Shown here: one piece after another, positions 2,587 through 5,423 of the stretch
Numbering within the stretch: position 1 is the first letter of the stretch
How the letters are laid out: each line of letters starts with the position of its first letter
Assembly (NCBI GenBank): GCA_045617785.1
Contig: JAZLJH010000024.1
Span: 10,936 to 74,935, forward strand
Source: Acutalibacteraceae bacterium
GTDB lineage: Bacteria; Bacillota; Clostridia; Oscillospirales; Acutalibacteraceae
DNA length: 64,000 bases
Reading direction: 5' to 3'
Translations under genes and position numbers: made by a program
The notes under the pieces: generated by a model
What the model saw: the letters and a program-made list of their open reading frames with translations, nothing else
Database searches by the model: none
What the model was told of the DNA's origin: nothing

Positions 2587-4143
2587 TTATTTTTCAGCTT
2601 GCTCTGACGAGTGACGCTTTTCAACAAGCTCTGCAAGTATTCTCTTGTGCTCCGAGTTCGGCAGCGCATATTTCCAGGTGGGTATCGCCGAAAGAATCAT
2701 TCCAATCATCGGGGGAATAGCAACAAGGAAGAACATTGCCGAAGCGTACTGTGAAAAGTCAGCCGAGAAAGATTTTGTGCCTTCGGCGAGTGCCGAGTTA
2801 ACCGCGTTAACATTGTCGCCGCTGAATTTAACAACTGCGAAAACAACGCCCTGAATAATGGTTGCAATACCTGCGGAAAGTTTTGTAATAAAAGACTGAC
2901 CGCTGAAGAATACACCGTCGGGACGGTTGCCGTTATTATATTCCTCATAGTCAACACAGTCCGCTATCATAATGGACTGAAGAACATTCAACCCGCCCAT
3001 TGACCAGGATGCTGCAAAGAAAACCACACCGACAACAACGGTGATCGGAAGTGATGTTTTCATTGCTTCGCCGAATAAGAGGTAGCAAACATATACAAGT
3101 CCGAAAGGAAGCGCGCCAATTACGGAATAGAAGTTATAAAGAGATTTTTTCTCAAATTTTCTCGCAAGGTTGGGGGTAATTGCGGAAGCCGCAAGCATAC
3201 CGCCGAAAATGCCGATACCGAGAATGGCAACCTGAATAATAAGCGTAAAATTGAGTTTGTCATTTACAAACAGAGCCTTACCCGGATCGTTGTCAAAGTA
3301 ATAATACATGACAAGAGTAAGTGCAACTGTTGAAAGCAGCTGAATGGGACTTCTCAGAACGCCGGAAACAAGAAGCTGACGGAAAGGCTTGCAGTTCCAC
3401 ATCGTTTTGAAGTTGTCCTTCATTGATGCTTTTTCTTCCTTTTGCGCCTTAACCTTTTCTTTAACGGAGAATCCGGCAAACTGGAAAAGAATCGAAGCAA
3501 AAACAGTTACTATAACGGCAAGCAAAATGAAAGAATACTGAAGCTGCGTTGCATCATCTTCAACGCCTCTTGCCGCAAAAAACGGTTTGAATGAAGGTGC
3601 AAGGAACTGAACAAGCATACCGACAACACCTGCAGTAGCAACTATTCTTGCAAGTGCAAGTATGGATGAACGGTCTTTTTCATCTTCGGTCATAAGTGAT
3701 GTAACGCCCCAAAGCGGAATATCACCTGCTGTATAAGACATTCCCCACATAACATATGAAACGCCTGCCCATGCTATAATAACGACTTTTTTCCACGTTT
3801 CAAGACTTGCGCTGTACTGACCGTTAATAAAGCAGAGAATGGTAATGACCATTACAATAGCCGGAACAAAAAGAAGATATGGCTTGCATTTGCCCCATTT
3901 TGTATGGGTTTTGTCAACTATTGTACCCATCATCGGGTCATTTATTGCATCCCATACACGGGCAATGGCAACAATTGTCGAGTAAGCCATAGCGGGAAGG
4001 AAAATAACGCTTTGGAAATAATACATAAGACCGCTGCTTATGATGTTGTAAATCATATTCTGACCTGCAAGACCTACGAGGTAACCGGTAAGCTCTTTGC
4101 CGTTGTAGGTTTTAACATTCGGGTCAAGTTTTCTTTTACCCAT
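2587..4143 (-). CDS. glycoside-pentoside-hexuronide (GPH/MelB-type) cation symporter
   Basis: Polytopic hydrophobic protein with the GPH signature WDAINDPMMGTIVDKTHTKWGKCKP. The start is placed at ATG 4143 (MGKRKL), which follows an AGGGGTG RBS, rather than at ORF-track position 4185. Confidence 0.8.
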   Translation of the reverse strand: MGKRKLDPNVKTYNGKELTGYLVGLAGQNMIYNIISSGLMYYFQSVIFLPAMAYSTIVAIARVWDAINDPMMGTIVDKTHTKWGKCKPYLLFVPAIVMVITILCFINGQYSASLETWKKVVIIAWAGVSYVMWGMSYTAGDIPLWGVTSLMTEDEKDRSSILALARIVATAGVVGMLVQFLAPSFKPFFAARGVEDDATQLQYSFILLAVIVTVFASILFQFAGFSVKEKVKAQKEEKASMKDNFKTMWNCKPFRQLLVSGVLRSPIQLLSTVALTLVMYYYFDNDPGKALFVNDKLNFTLIIQVAILGIGIFGGMLAASAITPNLARKFEKKSLYNFYSVIGALPFGLVYVCYLLFGEAMKTSLPITVVVGVVFFAASWSMGGLNVLQSIMIADCVDYEEYNNGNRPDGVFFSGQSFITKLSAGIATIIQGVVFAVVKFSGDNVNAVNSALAEGTKSFSADFSQYASAMFFLVAIPPMIGMILSAIPTWKYALPNSEHKRILAELVEKRHSSEQAEK

Positions 4144-4237
4144 ATAAACACCCCTGTTCATATATTGATGTAATAATAGTATCACAAAAGGGGAGGAATG
4201 TCTACTGTATTTTATTTTTTTATTTTTTCAAAGCCTT

Positions 4238-4401
4238 GTATATCATCCGTTTCGCAAGAAACGGTATATCACCAACACGAAGTGTTGTATATCATCAAGC
4301 CGCAGGAAATACACGCTTGCGCGTGATGAGATACAAGGTCGGCAAAGCCGACCTTGATGATATACACGCCTTACGGCGTGATGATAAGAAAGCTGCGGCT
4401 T
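4238..4401. repeat. unclassified decamer/hairpin array (3 direct and 3 inverted GTATATCATC-type decamers separated by 5 distinct hairpins)
   Basis: Decamers lie at 4238, 4264 and 4287 (direct) and at 4325, 4356 and 4380 (inverted). Hairpins lie at 4247-4264, 4274-4286, 4312-4325, 4335-4355 and 4366-4379. A further pairing AAGCCGCAG (4297-4305) / CTGCGGCTT (4393-4401) is possible. Confidence 0.85.
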
Positions 4402-4405
4402 GGAT

Positions 4406-4440
4406 AAAAAAATTACGAAGCAAAAGCTTCGTAATTTTTT
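4406..4440. terminator. bidirectional rho-independent terminator-like hairpin
   Basis: AAAAAATTACGAAGC-AAAA-GCTTCGTAATTTTTT: a perfect stem flanked by an A-run and a T-run. Confidence 0.6.
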
Positions 4441-4460
4441 GGCGGAGAGCATGGGATTCG
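4440..4460 (-). pseudogene. 21-nt duplicate of the tRNA-Ser 3' end (T-arm 3' half, acceptor and CCA) with no matching 5' half
   Basis: TGGCGGAGAGCATGGGATTCG is identical to 4592-4612. No GGAGAGC partner or cloverleaf can be drawn from the adjacent sequence. Confidence 0.7.
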
Positions 4461-4555
4461 TCGCGCCTGCGGGCTTAGTCGGGCTCGGCTCTGACAGTCC
4501 ACCGGACTGTCATTCACTACCGAGCCTGTTCGAATCCCATGTTGTAGCTGATACC

Positions 4556-4590
4556 AAACAAAAAACCATCCGTAAAGGATGGTTTTTCGT
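4556..4590. terminator. bidirectional rho-independent terminator after tRNA-Ser
   Basis: AAAAACCATCC-GTAAA-GGATGGTTTTT with flanking A/T runs, immediately 3' of the tRNA CCA end on the minus strand. Confidence 0.65.
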
Positions 4591-4591
4591 T

Positions 4592-4683
4592 TGGCGGAGA
4601 GCATGGGATTCGAACCCACGAAACGCTTTTGACGTTTACACGATTTCCAATCGTGCTCCTTCGACCAGCTCGGACAACTCTCC
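4592..4683 (-). tRNA. tRNA-Ser (anticodon GGA), type II with long variable arm, CCA encoded
   Basis: The reverse complement reads GGAGAGTTGTCCGAGCTGGTCGAAGGAGCACGATTGGAAATCGTGTAAACGTCAAAAGCGTTTCGTGGGTTCGAATCCCATGCTCTCCGCCA. It has a 7-bp acceptor stem, the anticodon loop TTGGAAA and the T-loop TTCGAAT. Confidence 0.93.
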
Positions 4684-4736
4684 GTGTAGTCAAATAAATA
4701 CCGCGTATTTAATTGCTGCGCTCAACACGCTCAGTT

Positions 4737-4765
4737 ATTATATCTAATACTTGCCGAAAAATCAA
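4737..4765 (-). promoter_or_regulatory. sigma-A-like promoter for tRNA-Ser
   Basis: On the minus strand: TTGATT, 17 nt, TATAAT, about 50 nt upstream of the tRNA 5' end. Confidence 0.45.
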
Positions 4766-4804
4766 GTGTTATTTTAATTTTATTTTATAAAATCGCTTTT
4801 TGGT

Positions 4805-4833
4805 TTGACTTTGTTTTGAATCGGTGATAAAAT
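4805..4833 (+). promoter_or_regulatory. sigma-A-like promoter for rubrerythrin
   Basis: TTGACT, 17 nt, TAAAAT, with an extended -10 TG. Confidence 0.45.
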
Positions 4834-4883
4834 AAAAGAAAATCAAGCGCAGACAGCGCGTAAAATTTACGGAGGATAATACT

Positions 4884-5423
4884 ATGGCAAACAAATATGC
4901 AGGCACACAGACCGAAAAGAATCTTGAAGCGGCATTCGCAGGCGAATCTCAGGCAAGAAACAAATATACCTATTTCGCTTCCAAGGCTAAAAAGGAAGGC
5001 TTTGAGCAGATCGCCGAGATTTTCCTTAAAACCGCCGATAATGAAAAAGAACATGCAAAAATGTGGTTCAAAGAGCTTGAAGGCATAGGCGATACCGCCG
5101 ACAACCTCAAGGCTGCCGCCGACGGCGAAAACTTTGAATGGACCGATATGTACGAGGGCTTTGCAAAGACTGCCGAGGAAGAGGGCTTCAAGGCTCTTGC
5201 CGCAAAATTCCGTATGGTAGCCGCTATTGAAAAGACCCACGAAGAACGCTATCGCGCACTCCTCAATAATGTTGAGACCGCCGCCGTTTTCGAAAAGAGC
5301 GAGGTCAAGGTTTGGGAATGCCGCAACTGCGGTCATATCATCGTCGGCACAAAGGCTCCGCTTGCCTGCCCCGTATGCGCACATCCGCAGGCATATTTCG
5401 AGCTTCGCTCCGAAAATTATTGA
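4884..5423 (+). CDS. rbr: rubrerythrin
   Basis: It has a di-iron four-helix motif ([14 protein letters not shown], ExxH repeats) and a C-terminal rubredoxin-like CRNCG...CPVC. A GGAGG RBS precedes it. Confidence 0.92.

Follow-up and report, generated by a model that had tools for sequence, protein, structure and literature searches.

A tRNA- and tmRNA-linked array of conserved decamers and covarying hairpins in Oscillospirales, possibly the head of an integrative cassette

An array of short conserved decamers that alternate with GC-rich hairpins, found downstream of a tRNA-Ser gene in an Acutalibacteraceae bacterium (Bacillota; Clostridia; Oscillospirales), belongs to a widespread module linked to tRNA and transfer-messenger RNA (tmRNA) genes. 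The array lies in a 64,000-nucleotide stretch (contig JAZLJH010000024.1 of assembly GCA_045617785.1, positions 10,936 to 74,935), which we call the window and whose numbering is used throughout; it is best followed on the minus strand, called M below. The module carries a terminator and an outward promoter, covarying hairpins, a long-range pairing between two segments (S1 and S3), and conserved unpaired decamers, and in a subset of loci it bears signatures of insertion. We favor the interpretation, to which we assign a probability of about 0.4, that the array is the cis-acting head of a non-autonomous, tRNA/tmRNA-targeted integrative cassette of Oscillospirales that is moved by an enzyme encoded elsewhere, with the decamers serving as protein-recognition sites displayed by the extruded hairpins.

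Conserved decamers, covarying hairpins and the S1:S3 pairing

Species-representative genomes were scanned with a pattern of two decamers plus an AAGG flank. A sequence-only reading of the window had allowed that the array might be a chance cluster of palindromes with no homologous arrangement elsewhere; we found homologues in at least 118 genome stretches, nearly all of them from Oscillospiraceae, Acutalibacteraceae, Faecousia or Ruminococcus assemblies from gut and rumen. Simple motif searches separated the members cleanly. One further relative is present in an IMG/VR contig (L071), and it was the sole true relative when a looser two-decamer pattern was applied to viral contigs, the other matches being mostly tandem coding repeats. 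GenBank phages and plasmids contained no array; the sole match there was to the terminator hairpin, by chance, in Acinetobacter.

Read on M, the members share one layout. The CCA of a tRNA or tmRNA is followed by an A-run, a terminator, a T-run, ATCC, and the S1/S2 hairpin (CCAAGCC-GCA-GGCTTGG). Next come GTATATCATC plus a GC-rich hairpin, usually three times, a central hairpin, S3 (CTGCGGCTT), and GATGATATAC plus a hairpin, again usually three times. The array closes with a terminal hairpin, AAGGC-TTC-GCCTT, that overlaps the -35 box, followed by GATT and the outward promoter. This form with three decamers of each type occurs in 67 of 104 parsed arrays; arrays with unequal counts of the two types are common, and the number of units varies from 2 to 9. 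The decamers are at least 90% conserved across the family, and 388 of the 402 inter-decamer spacers are hairpins, representing 205 distinct sequences. Hairpin types shuffle between positions, their stems being drawn from a shared repertoire. A coding role was rejected, as hairpin lengths vary out of frame; long open reading frames (ORFs) cross the arrays solely because stop codons are rare there.

Several members depart from this layout. Three arrays (L087, L088, and L106) have expanded to 6-9 or more units in the same orientation, including repeats of the AAGGC-TTC-GCCTT terminal hairpin, so units can amplify in tandem. In nine others (L104, L114, L135, L148, L150, L163, L170, L180, and L182), long composite hairpins between decamers, such as GAATGTATAACTCGCC-TGT-GGCGAGATATACATTC, contain GTATAT/ATATAC-like segments and look like nested or duplicated units. 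An identical 39-nt insert (TAAGGAGCGAAGCGACGGAATAGCGAGCCTGCGAGCGTC or its reverse complement) sits inside decamers of two genomes in opposite orientations, namely in the first decamer of L174 and in the first GATGATATAC-type decamer of L177, pointing to a very small mobile insert with the decamer as its target.

Covariation was assessed on 60 aligned arrays, with shuffles as the control. All 16 hairpin pairs tested exhibited compensatory changes, with 91-99% of cells paired, and the hairpin covariation score was 0.241 compared with 0.092 in shuffles, none of 500 of which reached 0.241. The impression, gained from the window alone, that these palindromes conserve structure while their sequence varies freely was therefore borne out among the relatives. 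S1 and S3 also covary: at least seven sequence classes match, down to the loop nucleotides of the S1/S2 hairpin, and the longest complement between them averaged 8.98, as opposed to 5.74 with shuffled partners (maximum 6.67 in 1000). In the window, S1 is AAGCCGCAG on the minus strand (4393-4401), which in relatives makes up the 5' arm and loop of the terminal hairpin CCAAGCC-GCA-GGCTTGG, and S3 is CTGCGGCTT on the minus strand (4297-4305). Their 9-bp complement, which lengthens to 10 bp at 4296-4305 and 4393-4402, had been described as a competing fold; it is actually the covarying long-range interaction. An invertible S1/S3 segment was considered and rejected, since no array was found in the flipped state.

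The fold with which this pairing was supposed to compete, a rod of three 10-bp decamer:decamer helices (1:6, 2:5, and 3:4) joined by two four-way junctions, is disfavored by the same alignments, and we judge it highly improbable whether as RNA or as a branched cruciform. The rod is the thermodynamically favored plus-strand fold and the RNAalifold consensus, but this follows from the sequence complementarity of the two decamer sets. Its 27 pairs show no covariation beyond independence: 14 are invariant, nine vary on one side only, and one exhibits two-sided change, with counts (UA 28, UG 17, CA 6, CG 5) that match independence. Further, the innermost helix is Watson-Crick at its most variable position in just 31 of 67 arrays (odds ratio 0.53), the two decamer types are often unequal in number, and on topological grounds the rod cannot coexist with the covarying S1:S3 helix.

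Variable decamer positions change independently of one another. Because the decamers are so highly conserved, yet lack mutual covariation, we read them as sites. Conservation as sequence, and not as pairs, would equally suit double-stranded operator or activator sites (iteron or ParR/omega-type) for a factor controlling the outward promoter, the palindromes being incidental spacers; the frequent array of three direct and three inverted 10-bp sites would agree with such a role, as would the fixed distance between array and promoter and the placement of the last hairpin over the -35 box. We consider an operator quite unlikely, however. Decamers are spaced 19-31 bp apart with no helical phasing, and incidental spacers would not be expected to be hairpins almost without exception, in so many sequences and with compensatory change. 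An operator would also leave the S1:S3 covariation unexplained, the cargo genes are mutually unrelated with no common regulatory logic evident, and the window copy retains its array but has lost the canonical promoter. In B-DNA, decamers at such intervals would face all directions, whereas with the hairpins extruded they would be evenly spaced; the unphased spacing, together with hairpin spacers that lie flush with the decamers, is consistent with a working form that is folded and not B-DNA.

The two halves of the array differ in their strand signals. On M, G.T exceeds A.C by 34 to 7 in the tRNA-proximal half (21 to 7 among distinct hairpins), while in the promoter-proximal half the two are equal (12 vs. 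12). Loops of the first half begin with G on M (GAA, GTA, GCAA, and similar), and those of the second half begin with T (TTC, TGC, TAC), so that there the opposite strand has the G-first loops; GNA triloops with a C-G closing pair thus change strand between the halves. In each half, it is the GTATATCATC-reading strand that carries the GNA loops, and the array therefore has true dyad symmetry. Such symmetry is expected of a DNA site.

It is possible, if somewhat unlikely, that the array acts instead as RNA. Transcription from either side, by terminator read-through from the tRNA side or antisense transcription from the cargo side, would give hairpin-GUAUAUCAUC repeats that could serve as (i) a bidirectional insulator or backup terminator, (ii) processing sites, or (iii) a platform or sponge for an RNA-binding protein. 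More narrowly, the tRNA-proximal half, closed by the S1:S3 helix, would be a small structured RNA. The compensatory changes in the hairpins and the S1:S3 covariation, loop nucleotides included, are consistent with RNA, as are the excess of G.U over A.C on the tRNA-sense strand of the tRNA-proximal half and the G-first loops (GNA, GNNA), which in each half lie on what would be the nascent strand of a polymerase entering from that side. Both strands of the window array also fold far better than shuffles (z = -6.7 and -7.6; none of 200 shuffles was as good), and the tRNA-sense strand folds slightly better than its complement in 64 of the 104 arrays. Conversely, no promoter feeds the array, which has a strong bidirectional terminator on one side and an outward-directed promoter on the other; its hairpins are without trailing U-tracts, and termination has no need of near-invariant decamers. 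A single RNA, moreover, cannot explain the strand-swapped loop bias, and the promoter-proximal half shows no bias toward wobble pairs. No match to a known RNA was found: when Rfam 15 was run on window positions 3900-4900 (E-value mode), the tRNA alone passed, the best score on the array being MicA at 20.3 bits against a gathering threshold of 41 (E = 2.1), and the arrays of seven canonical relatives gave no match either, in keeping with the original reading, which had recognized no riboswitch, T-box, or ribosomal leader in it. With no Rfam match, and with a strong terminator at one end and an outward promoter at the other, the array is on its face not an RNA gene.

Linkage to tRNA and tmRNA genes and signs of insertion

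In 69 loci, a same-strand tRNA (15 identities) or tmRNA (four loci) ends approximately 200 nt before the array end, so that its CCA directly adjoins the module terminator. Within the same distance of the arrays there is no tRNA on the opposite strand, and most loci that have no adjacent tRNA still show a CCA-ended tRNA 3' fragment at the same spot. On the other side of the array, 66 of 116 loci have a strong outward sigma-70 promoter, TTGAYN-17-TATAAT, to which 49 add a TGn extension. This promoter was first seen in reverse, as AATCAA, 17 nt, and ATTATA; it reads TTGATT-17-TATAAT away from the array, whose end keeps the fixed distance mentioned above.

Several loci preserve what appear to be traces of insertion. 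In L190 (tRNA-Ser), L171 (tmRNA), and L173 (tRNA-Glu), the final 17-26 nt of the tRNA recur as direct repeats on both sides of the terminator-array unit, and in the first two of these an apparent original tRNA terminator comes after the second repeat copy. One cargo gene lies inside tRNA 3' direct repeats in both L169 and L154, and the latter also carries two successive modules with 44 nt of tRNA-Arg 3' sequence between them. A tRNA-targeting element is marked by its position at a tRNA or tmRNA 3' end and by direct repeats around it; the module has this position in most loci and the repeats in these five, with none around it at the other loci in the sequence covered. Near-identical modules stand behind tRNA-Ser in one genome and behind tmRNA in another, and at six loci a cassette is enclosed by two arrays. 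We also count as a sign of insertion the strain-level rearrangement seen in L005, described below. A pyrimidine-rich right-end motif of 60 nt, comprising two direct repeats of about 25 nt and ending in CTCTTTCGCA, occurs behind the cargo in at least 14 loci; it may be the right end of the cassette or a secondary attachment site, and it lies directly before the terminator of a second module in four loci (L104, L122, L131, and L177). We looked for this motif in the window and found none.

The repeats of the 60-nt motif read ...TACGCACCTTTTCGCTTTTCTTACC...TACGCTACTTTTAGTCGCTCTTTCGCA, and a terminator or the next module follows. It is situated 375-1079 nt after the array in L089, L107, L116, L122, L127, L131, L134, L157, L160, L161, L165, L169, L178, and L184.

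The genes behind the module promoter are diverse and mostly small, including DUF2695 genes, a WapI-like immunity protein, XRE regulators, and transporters. Neither clustering nor a Pfam search of 150 ORFs revealed a conserved neighbor gene. The commonest first gene, in about 20 loci, encodes a PF05635 protein of 114-115 aa (23S rRNA intervening-sequence / four-helix-bundle, Avd-like); it starts at a fixed distance of 56-60 nt from the array, with unrelated small genes behind it (e.g., L175, L191, L141, L149, L155, and L156). This protein could be an ancestral cargo or a partner protein. In L100, a DUF3800-XI RNA motif (RF02975; 54.4 bits vs. a gathering threshold of 37.8) is located at 3870-3917, just downstream of the module promoter. 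The related L102, L109, and L186 probably carry it too, all within one sub-lineage.

Taken as a tRNA-targeted cassette, the module would insert directly behind the 3' CCA of a tRNA or tmRNA, and its own terminator would re-terminate the tRNA. The decamers would be specific sites for a trans-encoded protein, most likely a recombinase or accessory protein that integrates and excises the cassette, in a role analogous to that of the arm-type sites of attP. In unwound or single-stranded DNA, the inter-decamer palindromes would extrude as hairpins and so keep the decamers in a constant geometry whatever the spacer length, while the terminator and promoter would insulate and express the cargo. Arm-type binding sites for a recombinase or other protein had been listed in the sequence-only reading as one option among others, and we now place them first.

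Several observations weigh against a tRNA-targeted cassette. Among the 150 ORFs within 5 kb downstream at about 70 loci, Pfam identified no recurring integrase or transposase family, and a search for the tyrosine-recombinase box-II motif yielded a single plausible case over all loci and none in the window. Most loci have no downstream att-like repeat within the 8-kb stretches analyzed. Classical tRNA-specific integrases do not readily account for one decamer serving insertions behind 15 different tRNAs, covarying hairpins are absent from known attP arms, and the wobble excess on the tRNA-sense strand and the S1:S3 covariation would fit RNA too.

A further alternative is that the array is a selfish palindromic repeat whose function is its own spread, of the repetitive extragenic palindrome (REP), bacterial interspersed mosaic element (BIME), or miniature inverted-repeat transposable element type, the hairpins being substrates of a RAYT-like or other single-strand transposase. 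Like REP/BIME and BOX-type repeats, the arrays are intergenic clusters of units, each a short conserved motif plus a hairpin, in alternating orientation and variable number; the shuffling of hairpin types among positions and the small secondary insertions inside decamers also suit this explanation. Even so, we find it very doubtful. REPs conserve the palindrome, an imperfect one with a GTAG-type foot, and occur in hundreds of dispersed copies, whereas here it is the linker that is conserved and the palindrome that is free (205 distinct sequences among the 388 hairpins), and copies appear to be few, with a single array in the 64-kb window. For these reasons, REP/BIME was rejected as a classification. 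In addition, the arrays are strictly linked to tRNA genes, always standing behind a tRNA or tmRNA in one orientation, no HUH transposase recurs in the 150 neighboring ORFs, and the module has a functional-looking terminator and promoter.

The copy in the window and its surroundings

When positions 3600-5000 of the window were read, the decamers and hairpins were found where they had first been reported. All five perfect hairpins (4247-4264, 4274-4286, 4312-4325, 4335-4355, and 4366-4379) were confirmed, each flush with its decamers. On the plus strand, the direct-type decamers are GTATATCATC (4238-4247 and 4287-4296) and GTATATCACC (4264-4273), with the shared form GTATATCA(T/C)C; the reverse-complement decamers are GATGAGATAC (4325-4334), GATGATATAC (4356-4365), and the degenerate GATGATAAG (4380-4388). 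Two corrections are needed: the sixth "decamer" is nine nucleotides long and departs twice from the motif, and the symmetry of the array reaches further out, to a truncated terminal hairpin at 4229-4237. The arrangement is far from chance. Allowing at most one mismatch, the decamer matches 10 times in the 64-kb window, with five of these matches inside 4238-4365 (about 130 bp); the expected number window-wide is 2.44, and none of 100 shuffles reached 10.

Followed along M, the module opens right after CCA with a bidirectional intrinsic terminator (4407-4440; 15-bp arms flanked by an A-run and a T-run), whose position is conserved in relatives; the inter-decamer hairpins, trailed by GTATATCATC or GATGATATAC, do not qualify as intrinsic terminators. 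Next is S1, whose partner S2, the 3' arm of the S1/S2 hairpin, is eroded in this copy. The tRNA-proximal half (4325-4388) has GTATATCATC-reading decamers at 4380-4388 (the degenerate one), 4356-4365, and 4325-4334 (GTATCTCATC), with hairpins at 4366-4379 and 4335-4355. The central hairpin, CACGC-GCAA-GCGTG (4312-4325), is followed by a GTAT-type decamer remnant and spacer (4306-4311), the two together spanning 4306-4325, and then by S3. In the promoter-proximal half (4238-4296), GATGATATAC-reading decamers lie at 4287-4296, 4264-4273 (GGTGATATAC), and 4238-4247, with hairpins at 4274-4286 and 4247-4264. The last element is the truncated terminal hairpin, AAGGCTTTG in the window (4229-4237), where relatives have AAGGC-TTC-GCCTT-GATT with the -35 box; because the hairpin that bears this box is truncated, the canonical module promoter is missing. 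The window array is therefore a slightly eroded copy, which no longer has S2, the 3' arm of the terminal hairpin, or the canonical promoter.

The context was also described correctly at the outset, as lying between the start of a transporter gene and a terminator plus a tRNA-Ser fragment. The tRNA-Ser(GGA) gene (4592-4683, minus strand; predicted by ARAGORN, Rfam tRNA 46.7 bits) has the whole module downstream on the same strand. Between them lie a secondary small insertion of about 130 nt, which we term E-type (4461-4591, minus strand), and a second, displaced tRNA-Ser 3' end (4438-4460, minus strand), which covers the T-loop through CCA plus AA and is a 23-nt perfect direct repeat of 4590-4612. 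The displaced copy marks the original tRNA/module junction, and the E-type element was inserted after the array module, pushing the module away from tRNA-Ser. Only two copies of the tRNA-Ser 3' end are present within the window; a third was looked for there and is absent. The tRNA 3' repeat in the window thus flanks the E-type insertion, not the array. This insertion brings a terminator hairpin of its own (4554-4594), repeats the tRNA T-arm in inverted orientation (4528-4541), and contains a GACAGTCC-GGT-GGACTGTC hairpin.

Including the window, 18 loci have a second tRNA copy between tRNA and array, another element of 100-250 nt having been inserted later; the others include L071, L081, L097, L106, L117, L124, L130, L135, L138, L145, L153, L160, L165, L167, L173, and L185. 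Each of these elements has a terminator whose stem takes in CCA, and several, that of the window among them, carry an inverted T-arm of their own tRNA (CATGGGATTCGAAC in the window). A ACAGTCCGGNGGACTGT hairpin is common to four (the window, L135, L153, and L167). The palindromic T-loop TTCGAA may be the crossover point of E-type insertions.

In the window, the cargo position downstream of the module is occupied by a GPH/MFS_2 transporter gene (2587-4143, minus strand), preceded by a promoter-like site (4176-4204, minus strand; TAGACA, 17 nt, TG-n-TACTAT). A cis-regulatory leader of this transporter was considered and rejected. The promoter-like site separates the array from the gene, and the array, lying upstream of that site, is therefore not in the transporter leader; transporter homologues of 83-91% identity occur in unrelated contexts without decamers, so the array is not a conserved leader, and the arrays of relatives precede unrelated genes. 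The rest of the 64-kb window is core chromosome.

The transporter of L005 is 99% identical to that of the window, and L005 has the same modules, rearranged and with wholesale different hairpin stems. In L005 (1-300, compared with 4226-4410 of the window), S3 and the promoter-proximal half are lost, apparently through a deletion between GCTTGATGA-type direct repeats, and another half-array lies about 110 nt upstream behind a different terminator. Between these two strains, the array locus has rearranged faster than the flanking transporter gene has diverged.

Known recombination sites and the place of the array among them

Among the known systems closest to the array as we interpret it are the attP and attL regions of tyrosine-integrase elements that target tRNA and tmRNA genes, with their arm-type sites, tandem accretion, and non-autonomous forms resembling cis-mobilizable elements. 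Both are sited at a tRNA or tmRNA 3' end, with T-loop-to-CCA direct repeats around the module in several loci and tandem stacking at one tRNA; in both, the element brings a new tRNA terminator, small elements can lack an internal recombinase, and multiple direct and inverted 10-bp repeats lie within about 220 bp of the junction. The array differs in that (i) its one repeat serves at least 15 tRNA identities, (ii) all of its repeats are on one side of the junction, (iii) its spacers are covarying hairpins, and (iv) no integrase was found in cis near the arrays.

The attC sites of integrons resemble the array in other respects: they are recombination sites with conserved structure, free stem sequence, and short conserved motifs, the array shows signs of the strand specificity that they have, and both bound small, variable, often single-gene cassettes that can be stacked. 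It was by architecture that attC was rejected as an identity for the array. An attC consists of one imperfect hairpin, carries R''-L''/L'-R' boxes, and lies at the 3' end of a cassette that lacks a promoter and neighbors intI, whereas the array is a series of hairpins with 10-nt linkers at the 5' end of its cassette, is anchored at a tRNA, and has its own promoter and no IntI nearby (no recombinase family recurred among the 150 neighboring ORFs, and the box-II search gave the result reported above). Integrons are not known from Firmicutes. An unlikely, more far-reaching version of the cassette interpretation is that the arrays are folded-DNA recombination sites of a new Firmicutes cassette system, integron-like in function and tied to any tRNA or tmRNA gene through its CCA/terminator junction, in which a trans-encoded enzyme would read the single-stranded decamers and capture, stack, and express small accessory genes. 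These genes would include, for example, those for immunity-like and four-helix-bundle proteins.

A further comparison is with the 3' overhangs of Streptomyces telomeres and the terminal repeats of parvoviruses, which are series of short GC-rich hairpins with C-G-closed GNA loops and are recognized in folded single-stranded DNA. Those are the ends of linear replicons; the array differs in being internal to the chromosome and in having conserved single-stranded linkers between its hairpins. The array was also compared with CRISPR arrays, which have 23-50-nt repeats in one orientation and unique, non-palindromic spacers of about equal length, and this identity was rejected, as its repeat is merely 10 nt long and occurs in two orientations with hairpins for spacers. 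A literature search with the decamer strings returned unrelated papers only, and the literature on PF05635 and on cis-mobilizable elements contained nothing describing the array. Small non-autonomous elements stacked at tRNA genes are already known as a general kind, but the decamer-hairpin array itself is without counterpart in Rfam, in the literature searched, and in the families tested.

If the array is a recombination site, it points to generic targeting of any tRNA or tmRNA 3' end and to a cassette-capture system in a major bacterial order of gut and rumen in which integrons are not known. Should it instead be an RNA or a transcription insulator, it would be a new structured element that is abundant and has an unusual symmetry between the two strands. 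In both cases, the module flags a hypervariable locus of accessory genes across hundreds of uncultured species, and provides an easily searched signature both for such loci and for the protein that reads the decamers.

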